Of a DNA stretch of 64,000 nucleotides, positions 2,628-64,000 are shown piece by piece. Origin of the DNA: an uncultured Prevotella sp. (lineage in GTDB: Bacteria; Bacteroidota; Bacteroidia; Bacteroidales; Bacteroidaceae); NCBI GenBank assembly GCA_900541335.1, contig UQJC01000004.1, positions 3,808 to 67,807 of the forward strand, in the 5' to 3' direction. The translations under genes were made by a program, and so were the position numbers. The notes beneath the pieces are model-generated. The model searched no databases. It was given only the letters and a program-made list of their open reading frames with translations, and was not told the DNA's origin. How positions within the stretch are numbered: the stretch's first letter is position 1; every line of letters begins with the position of its first letter.

Positions 2628-4022
2628 ATGAGCTTCAATCTTCCCAAGACAGACAAAAAACGTGTAGTCATCGTAGGCGGCGGTTTCGGCGGTTTGAAAC
2701 TGGCAAACAAACTCCGCAAGAGTAACTTCCAGGTCGTATTGATCGACCGTAACAACTACCACCAGTTTCCTCCACTGATTTACCAGATAGCTTCAGCCGG
2801 TATCGAACCGAGTTCCATCTCATTCCCCTTCCGTAAAATCTTCCAAAAACGTAAGAACTTCTTCTTCCGTATGGCGGAGGTGCGTTCTATCTTCCCTGAA
2901 CACAAGATTATTCAGACTTCTATCGGTAAGGTGAAGTATGACTACCTCGTTCTGGCAGCGGGTGCAACTACCAACTTCTTTGGCAACAAGAACGTGGAGA
3001 ACGAAGCAATGCCCATGAAGAATGTGAGCGAAGCCATGGGCTTGCGTAATGCCTTGTTGGACAACTTCGAACGTGCACTGACCTGTGCGACAGACGTTGA
3101 ACGCCAGGAGTTGCTTAACATTGTAATCGTGGGTGGTGGTGCCACGGGTGTAGAAATTGCGGGTGCACTGAGTGAAATGAAGAACTTCGTGTTGCCGAAG
3201 GACTATCCCGACCTTCCGACCTCTCTCATGCACATTTATCTCGTAGAAGCGGGTCCCCGACTCCTTCCTGCCATGAGTCCGGAATCGAGCACTAAGGTGG
3301 AACAGTACCTCCGCACGATGGGTGTCAACGTGTTGCTCAATAAGATGGTAACCGACTACAAGGATCACCACGTGATGCTCAAGGACGGAAGCTCTATCGC
3401 AACGCGTACCTTTATCTGGGTGAGTGGTATCGCCGCTCAACCGGTAGGTAACTTGGATCCTTCGCACTTGGGCCGTGGTCGCCGCATCATTGTCGACGCA
3501 TTTAACCAGGTGAAGGGACTTGACGGTGTGTTCTCTATCGGTGACCAGTGCATTATGCCTGAAGGCGATGAGAATTGGAACGGCGGTCACCCGCAGTTGG
3601 CACAGGTCGCTATTCAGCAAGGAAAGCAACTGGCCAAGAACCTCAAGCGTCTGGAGGAAGGCAAGGAGATGAAACCCTTCCACTACAAGAACCTCGGTAC
3701 GATGGCCACCGTGGGACGTAACCGCGCTGTCACCGAATTCTCGAAGATGAAGTTTGGCGGCTTCTTTGCCTGGGTACTGTGGTTGGTGGTTCACCTGCGC
3801 TCTATCCTCGGTGTGCGCAACAAGATGATTGTGCTCTTCAACTGGCTTTGGAACTACGTTTCCTATTCACAGTCTCTGCGCATGATTATCTATGCCAAGA
3901 AGGCGAAGGAGGTAATTGAGCGCGAACAGCGACTCGCTTCGACCCACTGGGGTACGGACCTGCTGAGCGAAGGTTCAGAGGATACCTCCAATAACCAATC
4001 AGCGGACAAGAAAGCACAATAA
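2628..4022 (+). CDS. ndh: Type II NADH:quinone oxidoreductase (NDH-2), FAD-dependent pyridine nucleotide-disulfide oxidoreductase
   Basis: N-terminal Rossmann motif VVIVGGGFGGLKLA and a second dinucleotide-binding motif IVIVGGGATGVEIAG. 464 aa with a C-terminal amphipathic or membrane-anchoring region. Confidence 0.85.
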   Translation: MSFNLPKTDKKRVVIVGGGFGGLKLANKLRKSNFQVVLIDRNNYHQFPPLIYQIASAGIEPSSISFPFRKIFQKRKNFFFRMAEVRSIFPEHKIIQTSIGKVKYDYLVLAAGATTNFFGNKNVENEAMPMKNVSEAMGLRNALLDNFERALTCATDVERQELLNIVIVGGGATGVEIAGALSEMKNFVLPKDYPDLPTSLMHIYLVEAGPRLLPAMSPESSTKVEQYLRTMGVNVLLNKMVTDYKDHHVMLKDGSSIATRTFIWVSGIAAQPVGNLDPSHLGRGRRIIVDAFNQVKGLDGVFSIGDQCIMPEGDENWNGGHPQLAQVAIQQGKQLAKNLKRLEEGKEMKPFHYKNLGTMATVGRNRAVTEFSKMKFGGFFAWVLWLVVHLRSILGVRNKMIVLFNWLWNYVSYSQSLRMIIYAKKAKEVIEREQRLASTHWGTDLLSEGSEDTSNNQSADKKAQ

Positions 4023-14310: not shown

Positions 14311-16800
14311 TTACATACCACTGGGAGCACCTCCCTGTTCGTTACCTTGTCCACCCGTACTCTTCACATCGGTATTTTCGATGGAACGTACCACCTTACG
14401 CACCGAGGCTTTGAGGTCGCCGAGGCGGTAACGGATGCCGATGGAGAAGGTGCCTTGTTTCATGCTCGAACGCGTAATCATACGGTATTGTTCCGTTTGG
14501 GTGATGTTCGTGTAATGCACACGCTTCGGCAGGAAACCACCCGCTCCGAGCGAAACGGTCAGGCGGTCGTCTTTGAGAAAACCGCGGCTGAGGTTGAGGT
14601 GGTAAAAATAGTAACTGGGACTCTTCCCTTCGAGCGAAACAGATTTGCTGCCGCCTCCACCAAAGAGGCTGAACTTGAGTTTCCAAGGCAAAGTCTGCGT
14701 GACACCACCGTAGCCGTTGGCAGCAAAACCCCAATTGTGTTGGCGAAGCTGGCGCACACGGTAGTCTGAATAGCTGCCGCTGGCGTTGACAAAGATGGAA
14801 GTAGTCTTGCCTACAGTCCAGTTGAGGTAAGCGTTGAGGTTCCACACTTTCTCATGCAGGAACTCGCCGTAGGTGGAGTGCAACAGGCCGTCCTTCAGAA
14901 AAGTATAGTCGGTCATGCCGTTGTTGCCAAACGAATAGTTCAGGCTGAGGTTGAGCGAGAGTTTCGGACCAAACGTGTTGTAAGCCAACTCGAACTGGTG
15001 ACTCTGGGCACTCGTCAGGTTGGGATTACCATAGCTGACGTTACCGGGCGAACTGTAATCGGCATAAGGCGAAAGCATGTCGATGGAGGGACGGGCAATG
15101 CGGAGGTTGTAACCCAATTTGAGCATTTGCGTAGTCGTCAGGCTGTAAGCCATGCTCAAGGAGGGCACCCAGTCACTCAAGTGCGAGCTAAACGAAGGAC
15201 GTTTGCCGTCGGGGTAGGTAGCTCGATAATGATAATACTCGTAACGGCAACCTGCCAACATCGACCAGGACTTGAGTTTAAGCTTGTATTCCGCGTAAGC
15301 AGCTCCGATGTCACCGCGATGGCGGAAGCGGAGGCTCTGCGCTTCGTTGCGAACGAACTCCTCCTCACTTCCAGCCTTGCGACTCCACTCCGTGTTGTCG
15401 CTCTGATTGAGTCGGCTGATGTATTTTGCTCCGACCGACAGGGTATGCAACTTGCCCAAGGGGGTAGTAAAGTCGAGTTGCACGGTATGCTCGTTGTTGA
15501 GCTGGTCTGGGTCGGTACGGCGGTCAAGGAGTTCAAGGGTTTGAGGCACCTGTACGAGGTCAGAATAAATGCCCTGCGTCTGGTTGTTCGTGGGGTTATG
15601 GCCAAAACGATAAGAGAACGTCAGATTACAATCCTCGGCAAAGGTGTGTTGGAAGTCTGCCGAGGCGTTGAGATTGGTGGAACGCATCTTGCCCTTGTTC
15701 CACTGGTGGTAAGAGTAGACGGGATTCCACTCACGGTCGCTCATCCGGAAGTCTACATCGGCATCGTAGTCCACCTTCCAGCCAAAAAGCCCGACGGAGA
15801 CACTGAGCAAGTCCTTGGGCGAAAATTCATAGCTGGCATCGAGGTTGCCATGTTGAAAGAAACTCTTGTTCGTTTGCGAATTGGCTGTCGTAAACCAGTG
15901 ATTGACATCCTCGTCAAAGGCTTCGCGCTCTCCTGTGGAGTATGACGCAGGCTGTTTTTGGAGTCCGGCACCATAATAAGCCGAAAGGGTTAACTTGCCC
16001 AATTGAGCCATGCCAAAGAAACCGGCATTGCCACCTCGGTTGCTGAAGGTGAGACTCGGGGTCACCACGTAACCCGAAGTTGTCACCTGGCTTTCGGTCA
16101 CAATGTTGAGCACACCTGCCACTCCCTCTGCATCATACTTTGCGCCTGGGTTGGTGATCACTTCCACCTTCTTGATGGTCGAGGCGGGAAAGCTTTTGAG
16201 CACTTCCTTCGGGTTGGAAGTCATCATCTTATTGGGCTTACCGTTGACGTACACCGCAAAACTGTTGCTGCCGTTGACCTTGATATTGTCTTCACCATCC
16301 ACCGTAACCATAGGCACCTTGCGCAACATTTCGAGCGTCGTGTTGGTTTGGGCTTCGGGGTCATCGGCCATGGAGTACGTGAGTTTGTCAATCTCAGCAC
16401 GAACCAACGGCTTTTGCGCCGTCACGGTGGCCGTAGCGAGTGTATTGCTCAGCTCTTTCAGATAGAGCGTGTCGAGTTTAACCACCGATTTTCCCTCCGT
16501 GAGCGTCACTTCGCGGCGCAAAGGTTGCATACCGATAACTATTGCTTCGAGGGTAAAAGTTCCGTGTCGCGGTACGGGAAGGCTGAATTGTCCGTTAGCT
16601 TGGGTCGTAGCCACACGCAACGGCTTTCCCTTTACTCCTTTTTCCATCAAGCGAAGCGTGGCAAAGGCTTGCGGTTCGTGGGTAGCTGAGTCGCAAAGTA
16701 TGCCCTCAACGCGCAACTTGGCGGACTGGGCATAAACAGTTACAGATGTTGCAAGCAGAGCTGCCGTCAGGCTGACCAGTCTGCATACAGTATGTTTCAT
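14311..16800 (-). CDS. Outer-membrane beta-barrel / TonB-dependent-receptor-like protein with N-terminal carboxypeptidase-regulatory-like domain
   Basis: Signal peptide and a CarbopepD_reg-like N-domain (LRVEGILCDSAT…). Long beta-strand-rich region ending in an aromatic C-terminal residue pattern. 829 aa. Confidence 0.7.
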   Translation of the reverse strand: MKHTVCRLVSLTAALLATSVTVYAQSAKLRVEGILCDSATHEPQAFATLRLMEKGVKGKPLRVATTQANGQFSLPVPRHGTFTLEAIVIGMQPLRREVTLTEGKSVVKLDTLYLKELSNTLATATVTAQKPLVRAEIDKLTYSMADDPEAQTNTTLEMLRKVPMVTVDGEDNIKVNGSNSFAVYVNGKPNKMMTSNPKEVLKSFPASTIKKVEVITNPGAKYDAEGVAGVLNIVTESQVTTSGYVVTPSLTFSNRGGNAGFFGMAQLGKLTLSAYYGAGLQKQPASYSTGEREAFDEDVNHWFTTANSQTNKSFFQHGNLDASYEFSPKDLLSVSVGLFGWKVDYDADVDFRMSDREWNPVYSYHQWNKGKMRSTNLNASADFQHTFAEDCNLTFSYRFGHNPTNNQTQGIYSDLVQVPQTLELLDRRTDPDQLNNEHTVQLDFTTPLGKLHTLSVGAKYISRLNQSDNTEWSRKAGSEEEFVRNEAQSLRFRHRGDIGAAYAEYKLKLKSWSMLAGCRYEYYHYRATYPDGKRPSFSSHLSDWVPSLSMAYSLTTTQMLKLGYNLRIARPSIDMLSPYADYSSPGNVSYGNPNLTSAQSHQFELAYNTFGPKLSLNLSLNYSFGNNGMTDYTFLKDGLLHSTYGEFLHEKVWNLNAYLNWTVGKTTSIFVNASGSYSDYRVRQLRQHNWGFAANGYGGVTQTLPWKLKFSLFGGGGSKSVSLEGKSPSYYFYHLNLSRGFLKDDRLTVSLGAGGFLPKRVHYTNITQTEQYRMITRSSMKQGTFSIGIRYRLGDLKASVRKVVRSIENTDVKSTGGQGNEQGGAPSGM

Positions 16801-16998: not shown

Positions 16999-17160
16999 CG
17001 ATTTCCCAACGGCTTGGGAAACTGTTTTAAGGAGCTAGAAGGGTTTCCCAACGGCTTGGGAAACTGTTTTAAGGAGCTAGAAGGGTTTCCAAACAGCTTG
17101 GGAAACCGTTTTAGGGAGCTAGAAGGGTTTCCAAACAACTTGGGAAACCGTTTTAGGAGG
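16999..17160. repeat. Tandem array A: ~4 x 42-bp direct repeats each containing palindrome GTTTCCCAA-cggc-TTGGGAAAC
   Basis: Units at 16999, 17042, 17084 and 17126. The last unit is truncated or diverged. Units 1-2 are identical. Confidence 0.9.
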
Positions 17161-17597: not shown

Positions 17598-17671
17598 GGC
17601 GCGATAGCTCAGCTGGTTAGAGCGCATGATTCATAATCATGAGGTCCCCAGTTCAATCCTGGGTCGCGCTA
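17598..17671 (+). tRNA. tRNA with CAT anticodon (elongator tRNA-Met or lysidine-modified tRNA-Ile2)
   Basis: Manual cloverleaf fold: acceptor GGCGCGA/TCGCGCT, D stem GCTC/GAGC, anticodon stem CATGA/TCATG with loop TTCATAA, T stem CCCAG/CTGGG with loop TTCAATC, discriminator A. No encoded CCA. Confidence 0.85.
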
Positions 17672-17675
17672 CAAA

Positions 17676-36998: not shown

Positions 36999-38471
36999 CT
37001 ATCTTTGACCGATGGCCTTGCGGTACGCGGCACGCGTAATCTTCGTGTCGATCTGCGAATCGATTTTGTCGCTATGTGCCTGAAGCCATGCGGTTTGTGC
37101 CTGAAGCAAGTCGGTCGTATTGATGACACCTTCGTGAAAGCCCACCTGAGCCACACGAAGATTTTCTTCAGCCTTGTCCAGGCTCTTGAGGCTCAACGCG
37201 AGTTTGCGGTCGGCTTCGTTCACCCGAAAGGCTTCCTGCGTCACTTGCAGTTCAATCTTTTCACGAGCTTCTTCTGACTGAAGGGAAGCCATCATCGCTT
37301 CGGTCTTGGCTGAACGCACTTTGTAACGCGTTTCACCCCAGTTCCACACGGGAACTTTCAACAAGATGCCCACGCTCCAAGTTCCGCGAAACTTCTTTTC
37401 AAAGCTGTTGAATACATTCGGATTGGAAATGGCATAACCACCTGTCAAAGCTAACTGAGGTAAATGAGCTGAACGCTCTACGCGTGCTTTCTCGGTATAA
37501 ATCTGCTGCGCCAATTGCAACTGACGAAGCTCGGGACGCAGTGCATAAGCTTGACTGATTCCGTCCTGTACATTGACCGTAGCTTCAGATTGAACTGAAA
37601 GGTTTTCGCTTGCCTCGTCTGCTAAGATTGGACGATTGGTCAACGGAATACCACACAATTGACAAAGGAGCATACGCGAAAGGGTAAGTCCATCGTCGAC
37701 CTTAGTCAAGGTCATTTCAGCTTCATTAAGTTTTACGCTCACCGCCAGTCCGTTACTGCGGGTAGCCACACCTTCGTCAATCATCTTGACCATATCGGAA
37801 TCAAGTCGAGCCAACATGTCACGATAGCCTACAGCCAAACGGCGTTTGTTGACCAACGAAACGACTTGCCAATAGGCTTTCTCCACATCAAGCATCAAAG
37901 CCTGCTGACTGGCATCAAGGCGGTCGGCTGCAAGTTGCTTCTGATACTGCGTGATACGTTCGTAAGCTTTGATTTTTCCACCCATATAGAGGGGTTGGGT
38001 TAACAGGATGGCACCTGCGGTCATATTTCGGTTATCGGTATGCAAGGCATCTATTAGTCCTTGACCAAGGGCATTGCCCATTTGTCCGATTTGGGGTATC
38101 AAGCCTGAAAATCCTTGTACCAAAGGTGCGAGTTCAGGGTGTTGTGTAACCAATTGTTGAGCCATCTGCTGGAAACCATTCGAAGCAGTCGTTCCCAAAC
38201 TACCGAGCATCTTCTTTTGGTCTTTGCTTAAAAGGGAAACTTGGTCTCCGGTACGCATATAACCAGCTGTCAAAGATATTTTAGGGAAATAATTCGTGCG
38301 AGCCGCCTTACGATCCCACTCGCTCTTCTCTACACTCAAACGAGCGGCAGCAAGTTCTTTATTATTTTGCAAGGCGAGTGCGCGACAACTGTCAAGCGAC
38401 AGCGAGGTCTGCGCAGAAGCGCTAATGCCTGCCCAGGCAAGCAATAGGCAAAGGGTATATTTTTTCTTCAT
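36999..38471 (-). CDS. TolC-family outer membrane efflux protein
   Basis: Signal peptide and tandem OEP repeats. 490 aa. First gene of the tolC-hlyD-ABC2-ABC2 operon. Confidence 0.85.
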   Translation of the reverse strand: MKKKYTLCLLLAWAGISASAQTSLSLDSCRALALQNNKELAAARLSVEKSEWDRKAARTNYFPKISLTAGYMRTGDQVSLLSKDQKKMLGSLGTTASNGFQQMAQQLVTQHPELAPLVQGFSGLIPQIGQMGNALGQGLIDALHTDNRNMTAGAILLTQPLYMGGKIKAYERITQYQKQLAADRLDASQQALMLDVEKAYWQVVSLVNKRRLAVGYRDMLARLDSDMVKMIDEGVATRSNGLAVSVKLNEAEMTLTKVDDGLTLSRMLLCQLCGIPLTNRPILADEASENLSVQSEATVNVQDGISQAYALRPELRQLQLAQQIYTEKARVERSAHLPQLALTGGYAISNPNVFNSFEKKFRGTWSVGILLKVPVWNWGETRYKVRSAKTEAMMASLQSEEAREKIELQVTQEAFRVNEADRKLALSLKSLDKAEENLRVAQVGFHEGVINTTDLLQAQTAWLQAHSDKIDSQIDTKITRAAYRKAIGQR

Positions 38472-38683
38472 ACGTTTCAGTTAGGAGATACCTACGCGAC
38501 AAAAATACCGCTTTTCCCTTAGGTCAGCTGAATTTGGCTCCATGGAAGGGCAAGAAAAGGGAAAAATGGAACAGAAACGCGAGAAAAAGGTTGGCTTACA
38601 TCCCAATCAAACGGGTAGACACTCTGGCAACGCGCCCCTGTCGATATGACAAAAGGGCTGAAACAATAGAAAAGGACTTGTTT

Positions 38684-38852
38684 CAAGGATAAAAATTGTC
38701 AGATGGAAGGAAGAAGGACAATTTTCAAGGATAAAAATTGTCAGATGGGAGGAAGAAGGACAATTTTCAAGGATGAAAAATGTCAAATGGGAGGAAGAAG
38801 GACAATTTTCAAGGATGAAAAATGTCAGATGGAGGGAAGAAGGACAATTTTT
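38684..38852. repeat. Tandem array B: 4 x 42-bp direct repeats, each with 9-bp inverted arms AAAATTGTC/GACAATTTT around a 16-nt homopurine spacer
   Basis: Units at 38684, 38726, 38768 and 38810 with a few substitutions. About 210-380 bp upstream of the tolC start. Confidence 0.9.
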
Positions 38853-47997: not shown

Positions 47998-48141
47998 GAG
48001 TGGAGATTCATTTAAGTTTAAAAGTTTAGATAAGAAGTTTGGGAGTTCAGAGGCCGATGAACTTTCAGCGTTTGTCGGTCAATCCCTAACAGACAAGTCC
48101 ATCCACGTAAACTCTTCAACTCATAAACTTTTCAACTTTGA
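47998..48141 (-). other. nuoH-nuoI intercistronic region containing complementary AT-rich motif pair (AAGTTTAAAAGTTTA … TAAACTTTTCAACTT)
   Basis: The motifs at 48012-48027 and 48124-48139 are near reverse complements (about 14 of 15). They could pair across ~95 nt of mRNA. Confidence 0.5.
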
Positions 48142-49227
48142 TTAGAAATGCCATCCCATAGCGACGCAGAGTGCCATGAGGACAAGGTTTACCATGCTGA
48201 AGGGAACGAGATACTTCCATTCGAGGGAAAGAATCTGGTCAATACGCAGACGCGGGAAGGTCCAACGCAACCACATCAACAGAAAGACTACAAAGAAGGT
48301 CTTGCCAAGGAACCAAACCGCTCCAGGAATGAGGTCCATCACACCGTTGAAAGCGTCGAGACCATAAATGTGCAAGGGAGCCCAGCCACCGAGGAAGATG
48401 GTAGAAGCCATACCGGCACAGATGAAGAGGTTCAAGTACTCTGCCAAGTAGTAGTAACCGAAGTGCATACCAGAATATTCGGTATGATAACCTGCGGTCA
48501 ACTCACTCTCACACTCGGGCAAGTCGAACGGACCACGGTTACACTCTGCATTACCTGCTACCAAATAGATAAAGAAGGCAATGACTGCAGGAATGTGACC
48601 ACGAACGATGTTCCAACCGTTTACGTACTGGTCCTGGCAGATTTCGCTGAAGGACATGGTACCGGTCAAGCAGATCATGGCGAGCATGGTCATACCGATA
48701 GAGAGCTCATAACTGATAATCTGAGCACCACTTCGCATGGCACCAATGAGTGAATACTTATTGTTACTACTCCAACCGGCAAGCAGAATACCTACCACAC
48801 CGATAGAAGAAATAGCAAGGAAGAAGAATACGCCGACATTGAAGTCAATGATGTGCGCACCCATATTCCAGGGCAGACAAGCGAAAGTAACCATTGAGGC
48901 TGTCACAACCAGGAACGGAGCGAGGTTGTGCAGGAAAAGGTCACTCTGTCGCATACTGATAATCTCCTTGGTCAGCATCTTGAATACGTCGCTGAATACC
49001 TGGAGAAGTCCCCACTTACCTACACGCATCGGGCCTAAGCGGCACTGAAAGGCTGCGCAGACCTTGCGTTCCATATAGATAAGGGCGATAGCAAACACGG
49101 CATACAACGTGATGATGACCAATGCCACGAGAATACTCTCCGTCAAGATTGCACCCCACTCGGCAAAGCCACACGTCTGCATGAGAAAGCCATGAAGCCA
49201 GTTTGTTACTATTGAGAAATCAAACAT
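48142..49227 (-). CDS. nuoH: NADH-quinone oxidoreductase subunit H
   Basis: 361 aa with 8 TM helices and a NuoH/ND1 signature. Confidence 0.9.
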   Translation of the reverse strand: MFDFSIVTNWLHGFLMQTCGFAEWGAILTESILVALVIITLYAVFAIALIYMERKVCAAFQCRLGPMRVGKWGLLQVFSDVFKMLTKEIISMRQSDLFLHNLAPFLVVTASMVTFACLPWNMGAHIIDFNVGVFFFLAISSIGVVGILLAGWSSNNKYSLIGAMRSGAQIISYELSIGMTMLAMICLTGTMSFSEICQDQYVNGWNIVRGHIPAVIAFFIYLVAGNAECNRGPFDLPECESELTAGYHTEYSGMHFGYYYLAEYLNLFICAGMASTIFLGGWAPLHIYGLDAFNGVMDLIPGAVWFLGKTFFVVFLLMWLRWTFPRLRIDQILSLEWKYLVPFSMVNLVLMALCVAMGWHF

Positions 49228-49447
49228 GAGATTTAAATATTGAGTTTCGAAGTTTATGAGTTTAAAAGTTTATGAGATTGCCCATAAGGAAACCTTGTAG
49301 TTAGACACTAAAGACCTTGTGATTAAATTCACGGGCACGTTGCCATACTTGGAGTTTTTCAAAAGAAAAGACAGGAGCTTCCATGAAACAAACTTGACAA
49401 ACGTATCCTCTTAACTTTTAAACCTTCAACTTTTCAACTTAAAAGAT
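49228..49447 (-). other. nuoCD-nuoH intercistronic region with perfect 12-bp complementary motif pair (AGTTTAAAAGTT … AACTTTTAAACT)
   Basis: The motifs at ~49259-49270 and ~49410-49421 are exact reverse complements enclosing ~140 nt. The same motif family recurs in the nuoH-nuoI gap. Confidence 0.5.
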
Positions 49448-59463: not shown

Positions 59464-60171
59464 CTACAATCTTCCTTCTTCTTGGTAACTATAATACGCG
59501 CCATCCGTCACAATGACATGGTCAAGCAAATGGATGTCCATGGTTTCAGCAGCGTGTTTTACCTTCTCGGTCAGGCTGTCATCCTGCACACTCGGGCGTG
59601 TACTGCCCGAAGGATGATTGTGCATCAAGACTATTTGCGTCGCATTGGCCAAAAGCGCTTCGCGTAAAATCATCCGAACGTCGACTACCGTGCCGGTAAT
59701 GCCGCCGCGACTGATCAGCTTGCTGCCAAGAATGCCTAAACTCTGACTCAGTAAAAGAATATGAGACTCTTCTACAGGAGAGTCACGCACCTTGTCCAAA
59801 AAATAACGGTAAATGTCTGTCGCACTCGTGATGCGCCGTATGTGCGTACTGTCTTCGCGAAGCCTACGTCGGCCTAACTCGCAAGCTGCCAGAACGGTGA
59901 TAGCCTTGGCTGGTCCCATGCCATTATACCGACAGAGGTCCTTGATACTCATCCGTCCCAAGGTAGCTAAACTACCGTCACAATCCTTCATCACACGCTG
60001 CATCAACTGTACCGCATTTTCCTTCGCACTCCCTGATCCAATGAGTATGGCAAGCAACTCACTGACAGAAAGCACATCGGGACCAAGCGACTCAAACTTC
60101 TCACGCGGACGGTCTTCCAAACTCATATCCGTGATGGAAAACTTGACGGGCTGTTTATCGGATGAATTCAT
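59464..60171 (-). CDS. radC: RadC-family JAB/MPN domain protein
   Basis: Helix-hairpin-helix N-region and JAMM motif …HNHPSGSTRPSVQD…. Confidence 0.85.
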   Translation of the reverse strand: MNSSDKQPVKFSITDMSLEDRPREKFESLGPDVLSVSELLAILIGSGSAKENAVQLMQRVMKDCDGSLATLGRMSIKDLCRYNGMGPAKAITVLAACELGRRRLREDSTHIRRITSATDIYRYFLDKVRDSPVEESHILLLSQSLGILGSKLISRGGITGTVVDVRMILREALLANATQIVLMHNHPSGSTRPSVQDDSLTEKVKHAAETMDIHLLDHVIVTDGAYYSYQEEGRL

Positions 60172-60449
60172 AATAGAAGCAGGTTATAAGCAGGTGATGA
60201 AATTAATTAGAACGTTCAGTCACATGGCTTGCACGTATACCCTTACCATCAGATTCATGCACCGCATTTTTGAGAGAACTAAATTTCAACACCGACTTAC
60301 AGCAAAGTTATTGCCTTTTCAGTAGGTGAGCAAAGGTAGCACATCTTACTTAATCATCGGGATTTGCGCTAACCTTTTGTCAAGCTTTCGCATAAAACGG
60401 GTTATATTTGCTGCGTCAATCGAAATTTCCTCATTAAATTCTCCTCTTT

Positions 60450-60536
60450 ATGAAGCTTGTCATCCTATTTGCCCTCGTGGCCATTGTCGCTGTTTTAGGC
60501 GAACGCTACTTCAATCACAAGAATAAGAATAACTAA
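60450..60536 (+). CDS. Possible 28-aa hydrophobic small protein (MKLVILFALVAIVAVLGERYFNHKNKNN)
   Basis: ATG…TAA in an otherwise empty 540-bp intergenic region. Single predicted TM helix with a basic C-tail. No homology support. Confidence 0.25.
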   Translation: MKLVILFALVAIVAVLGERYFNHKNKNN

Positions 60537-60570
60537 CAAAGAAAGCTGTAAAGTAATCTTGACTTCCAAC

Positions 60571-60613
60571 GCATTTGCCCCGCAAACGTCAAACGACATT
60601 TGCGGGGCAAATG
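60571..60613. other. Perfect 15-bp inverted repeat CATTTGCCCCGCAAA-(12 nt)-TTTGCGGGGCAAATG without U-tract
   Basis: Read directly from the sequence. It is strong enough to be a stable RNA hairpin or a protein-binding site. Confidence 0.6.
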
Positions 60614-60712
60614 ATAGAAAGGAAGCATCAGGCCGATAAAATCGGACGACAACTCCTCCCCTACTCCACGAGGTCAAGCAGGATTTCTACCTTTTAGGTT
60701 ACTGCTTCACAC

Positions 60713-61726
60713 CTATTTATAGAAATTCTTCTTGAAGGCTTCAAACTCGCCGCGACCGAGGACACAACGTTCCCACCAGGCACGAACAAAACCCGAACCG
60801 TAGCCCCACAACTGAACGTAGGAGGCTGCGACCGCTAAGATACCTACATACAGGCTCTTTTCTGCACGCGTGGCGTCTGCACAGATAATCAAGGCGAAAA
60901 GCAGGAAGGGCAACAGCAACACCCAGCTATGCGGACATCCCAAACTCCATGCCAAAAGGAAGAGCACAAGGAGCAACGCGCAACCTACAGTAAAGATTGC
61001 CGGCAACAAATGTACCAGCTTCAATGTGCCGGGGTGGCGTTTCATCAAGTTGATGCGAGCGATACCCGAATTGTGTACCTGCTTAAAGAATTTACGCAAA
61101 TCGGTGCGCCGCTTGTGCCACACCCAGGCTTCGGGAAACAGGCGACAACGGTACCCTCCCTTGAAGATGCGGGTGGAGAAATCAATATCTTCACCAAAAC
61201 GCATGGCAGAGAAACCTTCCAAGGCTTGATACACCTCTCGACGGACTCCCATATTAAAGGAACGGGGATAGAACTTATCCATTTTCTTCTTCCCACCGCG
61301 AATACCGCCTGTCGTAAAGAAGGAAGTCATGGCATAGTTGATGGCCTTCTGCATCGGAGTGAAGGAAGCATGCGCCCGGTCGGGACCCCCAAAGGCATCG
61401 GTCGGACGAGCCACGAGGTCGCGCTCGACCGCAGCCACATAGCCTTCAGGCAACACCACATCAGAGTCGAGTATCAACACATACTCTCCCTCCGCGCGAG
61501 CCACACCATAGTTACGCGTCTGTCCTGGACCAGAATTGGCTTTCTGGTAATAACGGACAGCCAAACGGTCCTTATATCGGTCGACCACGTCTTGACAGGG
61601 AATGGACGAACCATCCTCTACAATCACGACTTCAAAGTCGGTACGGGTCTGGTGGGTCAAACTTTCCAGCAATTCGTCGACTTCGTCGGGACGATTGTAT
61701 ACAGGGATTACAAAAGAGAATTTCAT
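60713..61726 (-). CDS. Family 2 glycosyltransferase
   Basis: GT2 N-terminus MKFSFVIPVYNRPDEV…DFEVVIVEDGS…ILDSD (DxD). C-terminal TM helices. Start at the internal Met (the ORF extends to 61954). Confidence 0.8.
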   Translation of the reverse strand: MKFSFVIPVYNRPDEVDELLESLTHQTRTDFEVVIVEDGSSIPCQDVVDRYKDRLAVRYYQKANSGPGQTRNYGVARAEGEYVLILDSDVVLPEGYVAAVERDLVARPTDAFGGPDRAHASFTPMQKAINYAMTSFFTTGGIRGGKKKMDKFYPRSFNMGVRREVYQALEGFSAMRFGEDIDFSTRIFKGGYRCRLFPEAWVWHKRRTDLRKFFKQVHNSGIARINLMKRHPGTLKLVHLLPAIFTVGCALLLVLFLLAWSLGCPHSWVLLLPFLLFALIICADATRAEKSLYVGILAVAASYVQLWGYGSGFVRAWWERCVLGRGEFEAFKKNFYK

Positions 61727-61901
61727 ACGCTTGCAAAAGTAGTAGATGCACCGTGATGCGCAAAACGAAACCACGGATATTCTCCGTTTCATCCAATCTA
61801 CCTGCCCACAAAGGTGCTTTTCGAAACCCCTTCTTTCTGTATTTACTGAAAAAGAAGTACTTTTGCGCCGTAAATCCAAAACATATTCATTAAACATACC
61901 A

Positions 61902-62468
61902 ATGATTAAATCACAAGACATCAAGAAGGGCACCTGCATCCGTTTGGATGGCAAGCTCTACTTCTGCATTGACTTCCTCCACGTAAAGCCCGGTAAGGGT
62001 AACACCATCATGCGTACCACGCTGAAAGATGTTGTAAATGGTCGCGTACTCGAAAAGCGTTTCAACATTGGCGAAGCTCTCGAAGACGTACGTGTAGAAC
62101 GTCGCCCCTACCAGTACCTCTACATGGAAGGCGCGGACTACATCTTCATGAACCAGGAAACGTTCGACCAAGTGCCTATCGGTAAGGACTTGATCACTGG
62201 TGTTGACTACATGAAGGAAGGTGACATCTGCGAAGTAGTAAGCGACGCTTCTACGGAAACGATTCTTTTCGCTGAAATGCCCGTGAAGACTCAATTGCAG
62301 ATTGTTTACACGGAACCGGGCCTCAAGGGTGACACGGCTACCAACGCAACAAAGCCCGCTAAGTTGGAAACGGGTGTTGAAGTTCGTGTGCCTCTCTTCA
62401 TCAACGAAGGCGAAATCATCGAAGTGGATACGCGTGACGGCTCTTACCTCAACCGCGTAAAGGCTTAA
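61902..62468 (+). CDS. efp: Elongation factor P
   Basis: 188 aa from MIKSQDIKKG. The KOW-like N-domain with the conserved KPGKG loop and OB domains are present. Confidence 0.9.
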   Translation: MIKSQDIKKGTCIRLDGKLYFCIDFLHVKPGKGNTIMRTTLKDVVNGRVLEKRFNIGEALEDVRVERRPYQYLYMEGADYIFMNQETFDQVPIGKDLITGVDYMKEGDICEVVSDASTETILFAEMPVKTQLQIVYTEPGLKGDTATNATKPAKLETGVEVRVPLFINEGEIIEVDTRDGSYLNRVKA

Positions 62469-62490
62469 TATAACGATACGCTTAATGAAT

Positions 62491-62529
62491 AAAATCCCCA
62501 TCTGCTCTACGGAGCGGATGGGGATTTTT
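62491..62529 (+). terminator. Rho-independent terminator after efp
   Basis: Stem AAAATCCCCATCTGCTC/GAGCGGATGGGGATTTT (one G·U) followed by a T-rich tract. Confidence 0.7.
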
Positions 62530-62611
62530 ATGTCTTGTGAAAAAGGAAAACGAAAATGGTTGTGCGCTGCAAAATAACTGGCAAGCACACAAGAAACCTG
62601 CTTACCAGGTG

Positions 62612-63350
62612 CGGAATAGCTGTAAAGCTGAATTTTTAGAGGGTTGAACTGTGCGAAACCACGTAAATTCCGCTTTTGCAGCAGTCTGCACTGTGCGAAG
62701 CCACGTAAATTCCGCTTTTGCAGCAGTCCGCACTGTGCGGAACCCTAAAAATTCCGCTTTTGAAACGGTCCGCACTGTGCGAACTCCTAAAAATTCCGCT
62801 TTTGAAACAGTCCGCACTGTGCGAGCCCCTAAAAATTCCGCTTTACAAGGGTTTTTACGTTGCCAACCCCTAAGAAAACCGATTTTGCAACGGCTCGCAC
62901 AGTGCGAACCGCTAAAAATTCCGCTTTGACAACAGTCCGCACGCTGCGAGCCCCTAAAAATTCTGCTTTGACAATAGTCCGCACTATGCGGAACCCTAAA
63001 AATTCCGCTTTTGAAACGGTTCGCACTGTGCGAACTCCTAAAAATTCCGCTTTTGAAACAGTCCGCACTGTTCGAGCCCCTAAAAATTCCGCTTTACAAG
63101 GATCTTCACATTGCCAACCCCTAAGAAAACCGATTTTGCAACGACTCACACAGTGCGAACCGCTAAATATTCTGCTTTGACAACAGTCCGCACGCTGCGG
63201 AACCCTAAAAAATCCGCTTTTATAACAATCCGCATTGTACGGAACACAAAAAAACTCGCTTTTGCGCTGGTTCGCACGGTACGGAGCCTTTCGTTATTCA
63301 CTTTTACGACTGAACGCACCGTGCAAAACACCGCAAAATGCGAGTTTAGA
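62612..63350. repeat. Tandem array C: ~17 x 42-bp direct repeats (consensus CTAAAAATTCCGCTTTTGAAACAGTCCGCACTGTGCGAACTC) with 252-bp (6-unit) higher-order repeat; each unit carries palindrome GTYCGCAC-T-GTGCGRAC
   Basis: Units align by eye across ~740 bp. Units 3-8 (62744-62995) are re-duplicated as units 9-14 (62996-63247). The array decays at both edges. Confidence 0.9.
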
Positions 63351-63487
63351 CTTGAATCGTTTTTAAAGACAGATGTCGATTGAAGGAGAACTGAAGCCCT
63401 ATCCCGACACAAAGCCTCCTCATCGGGTCTTCGCTACAGAATAGAAGTTCTTCGTCCTGCAAGGAGAGGATATAGCCCAACCATCTT

Positions 63488-64000
63488 CTACAACAAGGCA
63501 GGCAACTGGAAGAGTTTCGTTCCGTTAGACCCCTTTATCAAGATGAGCCGTTCGGCGGGTTTTGCTCCACCCGACAGGGCTGTCTTGACGGCTTCCACAT
63601 CGGGAAACCACTGAGCACCTTCACTATAAGGCTGAAATTCTTCACCTACGAACCACACGGCTTCAGCCCCCAAGGAAAGGGCTTGCGCGGCCACCTTTTG
63701 GTGTTCTTCGGCTGAAACGGCCCCCAGTTCGCGCATTTCACCCAAAATCAACATCTTATGCGGATGCGAAATGAGGGCAAAATTGTCAAGTGCCGCCCGC
63801 ATACTGGTCGGATTGGCATTGTAAGCATCGACAATCAACTCGTTGTGAGCCGTACGGAGCAATTCGCTACGATTATTACTTGGCACATAAGCGGCGATAG
63901 CCTGTGCTGCTTGCTCAGGACTTACATCAAAACGCATGCCTACAGCCAGGGCGGCGAGCGCGTTAGTTAAATTGTAGGAGCCTATTAAATGAGTCTGAAC
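63488..64000 (-). CDS. murF: UDP-N-acetylmuramoyl-tripeptide--D-alanyl-D-alanine ligase, C-terminal part (5' end beyond window)
   Basis: The C-terminal Mur-ligase domain motif …LIVDAYNANPTSMRAALDNF… is present. The ORF runs off the window end. Confidence 0.75.
   Translation of the reverse strand, partial: VQTHLIGSYNLTNALAALAVGMRFDVSPEQAAQAIAAYVPSNNRSELLRTAHNELIVDAYNANPTSMRAALDNFALISHPHKMLILGEMRELGAVSAEEHQKVAAQALSLGAEAVWFVGEEFQPYSEGAQWFPDVEAVKTALSGGAKPAERLILIKGSNGTKLFQLPALL

Follow-up and report, generated by a model that had tools for sequence, protein, structure and literature searches.

A strain-variable 42-bp tandem array with satellite-like two-level organization in the efp–murF spacer of a gut Prevotellamassilia species

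Results

The efp–murF locus and its surroundings

The 64,000-nucleotide stretch of DNA analyzed here (hereafter the window) comes from a gut Prevotellamassilia species: the elongation factor P (EF-P) that it encodes is identical to a protein labeled "Prevotellamassilia sp." in NCBI, and the identical EF-P was found on 306 contigs, derived for the most part from gut metagenomes. As had been predicted from the window, a tandem array (array A) fills the intergenic space between the convergent genes efp and murF (Table 1). The Mur ligase, whose gene runs past the edge of the window, is 437 amino acids long at full length in ten contigs with the identical EF-P (L001–L010). An intrinsic terminator hairpin and a short unique spacer separate efp from the array. 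The head of the intergenic spacer is identical in the five alleles compared (the window and L001–L004), save for a 2-nt change in L003. The first repeat unit begins at offset 98 in all eight alleles parsed for their start, and the offset of the left anchor is constant in 11 of 11 alleles.

Pfam searches of 43 window ORFs returned either housekeeping-type families, including those of the nuo operon, ackA-pta, ribBA, lptFG, tex and ABC transporters, or no match. No ParA/ParB, Rep, integrase, transposase or Cas family was detected among these 43 ORFs, in agreement with the earlier statement that the window holds no parA or parB gene, and no ParA, ParB or KorB was detected among the genes called in the flanking loci either. 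No GC-skew switch was found within the 64-kb window.

Table 1. Coordinates of the features at the efp–murF locus and of two further 42-bp arrays in the window
Feature	Position	Strand	Description
efp (elongation factor P)	61902–62468	+	Left flank, convergent with murF; Pfam EFP_N/EFP/Elong-fact-P_C on the identical protein of L001–L010
efp intrinsic terminator hairpin	62491–62528	+	17-bp stem, 4-nt loop, T-run; precedes the array
Unique spacer, efp terminator to array	62529–62617		Constant length in 11/11 alleles
Whole array (A)	62618–63329		17 head-to-tail units (15 x 42 bp, 2 x 41 bp); consensus CCTAAAAATTCCGCTTTTGAAACAGTCCGCACTGTGCGAACC
Edge unit 1	62618–62659		Inverted copy of the A/T segment plus half dyad
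Higher-order repeat copy 1	62744–62994		Six units, 251 bp
Odd 41-bp unit	62828–62868		Without dyad; CCTAAAAATTCCGCTTTACAAGGGTTTTTACGTTGCCAACC; shifts every reading frame
Higher-order repeat copy 2	62995–63245		Six units, 251 bp; 229/251 (91%) identical to copy 1
Second odd 41-bp unit	63079–63119		Without dyad
Right-edge units O, P, Q and remnant	63204–63347		Degenerate; nearly invariant across strains
murF 3' end	63488–64000	-	Right flank, past the window edge; Pfam Mur_ligase_C; stop codon 63488–63490
Array B	17002–17159		About 200 bp upstream of a TonB-dependent receptor gene; 3.7 to at least 7 copies across strains
Array C	38681–38851		About 210 bp upstream of a TolC-like gene; 2.1 to 7.1 copies across strains

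Architecture of the array

TRF called a period of 42 at 62648–63264 (14.7 copies, score 366) and, in a second call, a period of 251 (2.4 copies, 87% matches, score 920). By anchoring on the dyad and then chaining units from position 62618, we parsed the array into 17 units; the original prediction of about 17 tandem 42-bp units was therefore right in number, while two of the units proved to be 41 bp long and to lack the dyad. The palindromic core of each 42-bp unit is short (CGCAC-N-GTGCG) and is accompanied by an A5 tract and a CCGCTTT box. At up to three mismatches, the window contains 14 matches to the dyad motif and 13 to the A/T segment, compared with 0.20 and 0.26 in shuffled sequence. 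A single A/T-segment match lies outside the array, and every other dyad or A/T match falls within it.

The dyad had been described as GTYCGCAC-T-GTGCGRAC with a 1-nt center. Its inner part is well kept: among 51 distinct interior units from 11 alleles, 90% of the inner five pairs are Watson-Crick, compared with about 50% of the outer three. The 8-bp arms did not hold up as a general feature, being perfect (8/8 pairs) in one of the 51 units, and the center base is T, A or G. The two-level organization required a similar adjustment. Six consecutive units are reduplicated as a block, as had been proposed, and yet the block length is not the 252 bp originally given. Because the identity of 62744–62994 to the downstream block is high at an offset of 251 (229/251) and low at an offset of 252 (90/251), the higher-order period is 251 bp. 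At the left end of the array, edge unit 1 holds an inverted copy of the A/T segment, making this end a larger palindrome; an inverted-repeat search found its arms at 62621–62655 to be 83–86% complementary to 62813–62847 and 63064–63098. The exclusion of a CRISPR is upheld, since the repeat comprises the entire 42-bp unit, leaving no unique spacers, and no cas family was found in the window. The array is a real, non-coding, satellite-like tandem array with two-level organization.

Variation among strains

The efp–murF spacer measures 1019 bp in the window and from 809 to 1521 bp across the ten identical-EF-P contigs, and the length differences among these alleles, window included, comprise steps of 42, 209 and 251 bp. 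The 11 alleles contain 12, 12, 16, 17, 17, 22, 22, 23, 23, 24 and 29 units, and the order of units is distinct in every one of them. Alleles have their first and last few units in common and differ in the interior by single units and by multi-unit blocks, with about one to four copies of the six-unit block in other strains. Strains have thus gained or lost single 42-bp units and multi-unit blocks of 209 and 251 bp, while the degenerate edge units have stayed fixed. A twelfth copy of the locus, on a JGI contig (97.9% identity over 5 kb), contains about 15 TRF copies. An array of at least 12 units was present in all 12 contigs examined. Three array-bearing contigs are long-read polished assemblies of 1.7–4.6 Mb, and the array is therefore not an assembly artifact.

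The original prediction had offered a recombination hotspot as one alternative and copy-number variation between strains as a way of checking it. Both are borne out by these data, with 11 distinct alleles, each different from the others, ranging from 12 to 29 units between the same flanks. The array displays the hallmarks of a bacterial minisatellite or VNTR, namely a head-to-tail unit of at least 10 bp, copy-number variation at the same locus, and stable degenerate edges around a variable, homogenized interior.

Homologous arrays elsewhere and absence from close relatives

A pattern scan of JGI metagenomes identified homologous 42-bp arrays on three contigs (L021, L022 and L037) of a second gut species, and a protein look-up identified a fourth (L042). 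The unit of this second family, GGTTCTATAAATTCCGCTTTCTTGAGGGTTCGCACAGTGCGA, matches the window consensus at 29 of 42 positions and is present in 6.3 (L021 and L022), 10.5 (L042) and 14.3 (L037) TRF copies. This family is not at the efp–murF locus: on one side it is flanked by an outer-membrane beta-barrel gene (3' end) and on the other by a heavy-metal P-type ATPase gene (5' side). Its right dyad arm is nearly invariant; its left arm is intact in nine of 29 units and otherwise reads TTTGCAC, TTTATAC or TCTGCAC. A third family, on a contig from a further sample (L142), is built of two alternating 42-bp subunits that resemble families 1 and 2. The three families have in common a skeleton consisting of the palindromic core, an A-rich tract and (C/G)CGCTTT. 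The array belongs to a small family of homologous 42-bp arrays, with members in one other gut species and on the third contig.

The array is not conserved 3' of efp in close relatives. No array units were found in the 165 bp available 3' of efp, up to the contig end, in a relative with 95% EF-P identity. The array is absent 3' of efp both in a relative with 93% EF-P identity, which has a channel gene there instead, and in a sister species from the same 90% EF-P cluster, where efp is convergent with a GH20 gene. We also scanned one genome per species (185,579 genomes) for the pattern TTCCGCTTT-N10-CGCACNGTGCG, and obtained eight single matches compared with about four expected by chance. The only one of the eight in the Prevotellaceae (L017) is ordinary non-repeat sequence with no array, and the other seven are in unrelated phyla. 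The species' own representative genome has no match to the pattern, nor did the same scan return any from viral contigs. A literature search found no paper on these repeats.

In one strain of the second species, an island encoding a tyrosine integrase is inserted within a repeat unit. The island also encodes HTH, GerE, AAA_15, a metallo-beta-lactamase-fold/Apyc1-like protein and DUF4494. We considered the array as a phage attachment site and rejected this idea. None of 78 viral-contig loci with relatives of the integrase has the repeat beside it. The closest viral integrase (98% identical) adjoins unrelated sequence that has about 12 bp (TTATTAGTNCCT) in common with the junction, and TTATTAGTNCCT resembles TTTTTAGAACCT of the unit. 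Since the viral relative shares only these 12 or so bp, the array would be at most an incidental secondary attachment site, which is probably what it is in that strain.

Two further 42-bp arrays of unrelated sequence

The window contains two more intergenic arrays with a 42-bp period and a dyad within each unit (arrays B and C; Table 1). A common origin of arrays A, B and C was considered and rejected: their best circular alignments give 16–19 matches out of 42, no better than shuffles. Given that a TAnnTTTG motif sits between array and gene in both cases, arrays B and C lie upstream of promoters. Contigs of the neighboring array stop inside the repeats. No additional tandem repeats were found in about 18 kb of extra flank, and all three intergenic minisatellites in the resulting 82 kb or so have a period of exactly 42 bp.

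DNA curvature and the possibility of a protein-binding array

The original prediction compared the array with sopC and considered a centromere-, iteron- or nucleoid-organizing-like site. In its general form, this interpretation holds that the units are phased binding sites for a DNA-binding protein, whether centromere-like, iteron-like, nucleoid-organizing or anchoring curved DNA, with all dyads on the same helical face. DNA shape is in keeping with it. In a dinucleotide wedge model, the twist of the consensus unit sums to 1440.0 degrees, or 4.000 turns, which confirms the predicted equivalence of 42 bp and four helical turns. The same model makes the array the most curved 168-bp stretch of the window, with an end-to-end/contour ratio of 0.61 compared with a median of 0.96, and 0.5% of shuffled units were equally curved. 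The curvature prediction that had been suggested as a check is thus positive at the level of the model, and AA/TT phasing at 10.5 bp, a parameter-free measure, ranks array A first and array C second in the window. The array DNA is therefore predicted to be strongly and intrinsically curved, because the spacing of its A/T tracts is exactly four helical turns. Array B, however, is straight and family 2 shows no significant curvature, and so curvature is not the common denominator of these arrays.

Sequence conservation points in the same direction, with the 11-bp palindromic core 90% kept in the interior units. The retention of core, A-tract and CGCTTT across three diverged families, of which two are at different loci, could reflect selection for a sequence-specific role such as protein binding, and so could the presence of at least 12 units in each of the 12 contigs. 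Against this stand the free copy number (12 to 29), the single perfect 8-bp dyad among 51 units and the decay of the family 2 left arm in 20 of 29 units. Where the flanking genes are known, in two of the families, the loci differ, and the array is absent 3' of efp in both relatives in which that region is readable. Two further 42-bp VNTRs of unrelated sequence lie nearby, and the 43 window ORFs scanned include no par or rep family or other obvious partner. The array does possess the tandem units with an inverted repeat that a partition centromere would have, but no parA or parB gene was found among the 43 window ORFs scanned or the genes called in the flanking loci. As for an iteron origin, the flanks are efp and murF, and neither a Rep family nor a GC-skew switch was found in the window.

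The specific analogy with a sopC-like centromere, iteron or nucleoid site is consequently unsupported, in view of the lack of par/rep families among the ORFs scanned, the free copy number, the imperfect dyads and the shifting loci. The pattern fits the class of minisatellites rather than one dedicated chromosomal site. We regard a phased protein-binding array as unlikely, and the positive support for a sequence-specific binding role comes down to the conservation of the short skeleton.

The shared period raises a broader possibility. That three arrays of unrelated sequence have the same 42-bp period goes beyond what neutral slippage predicts. Gut Prevotellaceae chromosomes might carry an unrecognized class of phased arrays spanning four helical turns, in which selection, or the generating mechanism, acts on the period rather than the sequence. 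Such a class could owe its existence to a structural role, for instance as curved or cruciform-prone DNA bound by a nucleoid protein, or to a duplication mechanism that measures length. We think it quite unlikely that such a class exists; if it did, it would explain the exact 42 bp both of three unrelated VNTRs and of the homologous arrays in other species, and, were the shared period found genome-wide, this would point to a structural or mechanistic rule so far undescribed.

Predicted RNA folding and the murF 3' end

The array could instead act as RNA, with murF read-through folding into a string of hairpins that terminates transcription or stabilizes the mRNA 3' end, as in REP/BIME elements, or with the units giving rise to a repeated small RNA. 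The minus strand, which murF read-through would transcribe, is predicted to fold far more stably than the plus strand (-296 compared with -209 kcal/mol), and the same holds in all 11 alleles. Dyad mismatches are also skewed (48 compared with 20), most being C:A on the plus strand, equivalent to G.U on the minus strand. No canonical terminator was found between the murF stop codon and the array, and the minus strand contains, within the units, weak terminator-like hairpins with partly U-rich tails, nine in the region compared with 2.3 expected. The array may help to stop murF read-through.

We nevertheless read the folding asymmetry as compositional, because the minus strand of the array is G+T-rich, because the more stable strand is reversed in the homologous family 2, whether judged by unit orientation or by the flanking genes, and because there is no compensatory variation, the stem sequence being the same in all families. 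Family 2 also lacks the terminator-like feature, and arrays B and C show no gene-sense bias. Rfam searches, run with an E-value cutoff on 60000–64000 and with gathering scores on the whole window, returned nothing relevant to the array: the sole match to pass in the window is a tRNA-Met at 17598–17671, and the best match within the array, to MIR4374, scores 32 bits against a threshold of 105. A promoter for a small RNA is not apparent either, as neither strand of the spacer contains the Bacteroidetes-type -7 motif TAnnTTTG. A dedicated role as RNA is in our judgment very unlikely.

Mobile-element and protein-coding readings

Another possibility is a mobile or once-mobile element, MITE-like or REP/BIME-like, that has been carried to different loci and of which the array would be the internal minisatellite. 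The non-orthologous positions of the homologous arrays, efp–murF in one species and outer-membrane-protein/metal-ATPase genes in the other, would be accounted for in this way, as would the inverted unit copy at the left edge, and BrickBuilt provides a precedent in the Bacteroidales (PMC4596501). However, neither the 64-kb window nor about 18 kb of added flanking sequence yielded a second copy, and the motif was confined to one locus in each motif-bearing assembly of the JGI metagenome scan. The scan of 185,579 species genomes likewise gave single chance matches only. The families have no conserved leader or tail in common, BLAST matches being confined to the array itself. The inverted left edge has no matching right end, and we saw neither a target-site duplication nor a transposase gene nor any homology between the flanks of the families. 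A mobile origin is accordingly to be strongly doubted.

The remaining reading takes the array as a protein-coding gene with 14-residue repeats. Forty-two bp correspond to 14 codons, ORFs of 71–106 amino acids stay open on both strands, and a 96-amino-acid ORF was called in one strain. Both strands are open because the palindrome CGCACNGTGCG reads Arg-Thr-Val-Arg either way, and the frame is broken every six units by the 41-bp units. Gene callers passed over the region in nine of ten contigs. A profile search with the translated repeats gave one match in a set of 5.8 billion proteins and 19 among 1.84 billion representatives, and the three matches that were read as DNA (P0135, P0136 and P0139) are ORFs through other tandem arrays. 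With the only convincing matches being ORFs through related or look-alike arrays, the earlier view that the array ORFs are spurious is supported and a coding function can be dismissed.

Discussion

We favor, with moderate confidence, the interpretation that the array is a non-coding, species-restricted, hypervariable palindromic minisatellite (VNTR) in the chromosome of a gut Prevotellamassilia species, which expands and contracts by slippage and unequal exchange at a permissive site between convergent genes. Weighing against this interpretation are the exact 42-bp period common to three unrelated arrays, together with the conserved skeleton and the presence of at least 12 units in all 12 contigs, both of which selection could account for. 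Single-unit changes would arise by slipped-strand mispairing during replication, which the hairpin-forming palindromes probably favor. For changes of whole blocks, we envisage that sister chromosomes undergo unequal homologous exchange in the register of the higher-order repeat. The array would persist by virtue of its position downstream of both convergent genes: given that the efp terminator precedes the array and that the array is located 3' of both genes, we propose that changes in its length cost nothing. Its curvature, its hairpin or cruciform potential and any help it provides against murF read-through are likely side-effects and not a dedicated function.

A minisatellite of this kind matters in several ways. 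The locus is a high-resolution strain marker for an abundant gut Prevotellamassilia species, as the allele differs in every strain examined. The array is also a likely cause of broken or collapsed short-read assemblies, and it yields spurious ORF calls that enter protein databases. Finally, it illustrates that a higher-order, satellite-like organization can arise in a bacterial chromosome.

Several known repeat systems resemble the array in part. The pneumococcal BOX element contains variable numbers of a 45-bp boxB unit and is used for MLVA typing; BOX and the mycobacterial MIRU-VNTR are dispersed families with many loci per genome and one common unit sequence. The array is like both in having intergenic, non-coding tandem units of about 40–55 bp with hairpin potential and strain-variable copy number. 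Unlike them, it has a unit sequence that appears at one locus in each genome, and what the three arrays of the window have in common is their period alone. Conserved ends of the boxA/boxC kind were not found.

The F-plasmid sopC site, with 12 repeats of 43 bp that each contain a 7-bp inverted repeat bound by SopB, has a similar spacing of about four helical turns. It differs in being plasmid-borne, adjacent to sopAB and of defined role, whereas the array is chromosomal, with no par gene in the window, a free copy number, decayed dyads and homologues at other loci. Escherichia coli REP/BIME elements are likewise palindromic units clustered between convergent genes with strain-variable copy number, and they can affect mRNA 3' ends; BIMEs, however, alternate in orientation, are dispersed by the hundreds and are linked to RAYT transposases, whereas the array is almost wholly head-to-tail and apparently confined to a single locus.

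A counterpart within the Bacteroidales is BrickBuilt of Porphyromonas gingivalis, a minisatellite-bearing MITE with a 23-nt unit and with leader and tail segments that have inverted-repeat ends; a genome contains 19 copies of it, and its promoter activity has been measured (PMC4596501). Like the array, it is strictly intergenic and consists of spacer-less tandem units with degenerate flanking segments (PMC4596501), but its 23-nt unit, leader and tail, 19 copies and promoter activity have no counterpart found for the array. Eukaryotic satellites offer a parallel for the two levels of organization, here a 42-bp monomer and a 251-bp block of six monomers that is amplified as a unit; they differ in scale, with one to four blocks in the present case, in organism and in their centromere context. 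The sequence family to which the array belongs is new, its general kind is already known (compare BOX boxB, MIRU, BIME and BrickBuilt), and its higher-order structure is unusually clear.

Arrays with a 42-bp period

The three minisatellites of the window, namely array A between efp and murF and arrays B and C, share a period of 42 bp but not a sequence. In gene-sense orientation, the unit of array B is CCTAAAACAGTTTCCCAAGCCGTTGGGAAACCCTTCTAGCTC, whose palindrome is TTTCCCAA-N4-TTGGGAAA. The array precedes a TonB-dependent receptor gene (14311-16800, minus strand) by approximately 200 bp, is also upstream of the TAnnTTTG motif of that gene, and shares one long intergenic region with a tRNA-Met (CAT) gene, the sole Rfam or ARAGORN match across the window. 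Its copy number among strains ranges from 3.7 to at least 7, and two short-read contigs terminate within it. Array C separates ackA from a TolC-like efflux gene (36999-38471, minus strand) and carries 10-bp inverted arms (GAAAATTGTC...GACAATTTTC) and strongly phased A-tracts, with 2.1-7.1 copies among strains.

Coordinates of arrays and associated features
Feature	Sequence	Position	Source
Array B, intergenic 42-bp tandem array	window	17002-17159	
tRNA-Met (CAT) gene	window	17598-17672	Rfam / ARAGORN
Array C, intergenic 42-bp tandem array	window	38681-38851	
Inverted repeats with 16-bp tandem units (TGAGTTTAAAAGTTTA)	window	48016-48137 and 49243-49423	
Island junction, species 2 (L042/L043)	L043	~10163	

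A 42-bp tandem array of unrelated sequence was also observed in a GC-rich bacterium (GCA_964524885.1; L143, 4020-4300), where it is annotated as a 192-aa protein and its unit contains the perfect palindrome TTCCGAAC-G-GTTCGGAA. This array was retrieved solely through the RTVR (Arg-Thr-Val-Arg) translation of such palindromes; the query thus selected for its period, which does not count as independent evidence.

Spurious ORFs over array A (62618-63329) and arrays B and C have been entered as proteins in public collections, and their length follows the copy number of the repeats. Examples include a 96-aa ORF in L009 (a contig with an identical EF-P), ORFs of 52-108 aa over array C in L044-L053, and two matches to the translated repeats of array A (P0135 and P0136).

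Other repeat elements and an integrase island

In the sister species (L059, L060, L062 and L063, ~3650-3890), we observed a MITE-like insertion 3′ of efp whose presence or absence differs among strains. Its ends are 8-bp tandem repeats (ACGAGTAG/AAACGAGT versus CTTGTTTA), and comparable 8-bp repeats also occur upstream of efp. Within the NADH dehydrogenase operon of the window, the inverted repeats with 16-bp tandem units bracket a nuoH-like gene (48142-49227) and may represent another small repeat element.

In one strain (L042/L043) of species 2, the second gut species with a homologous array, an island encoding a tyrosine integrase and phage-like genes sits within one unit of that array, replacing the outer-membrane-protein gene side that is present in L021, L022 and L037. 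Among viral sequences, the closest relative occupies a different site and has a core of only ~12 bp in common.
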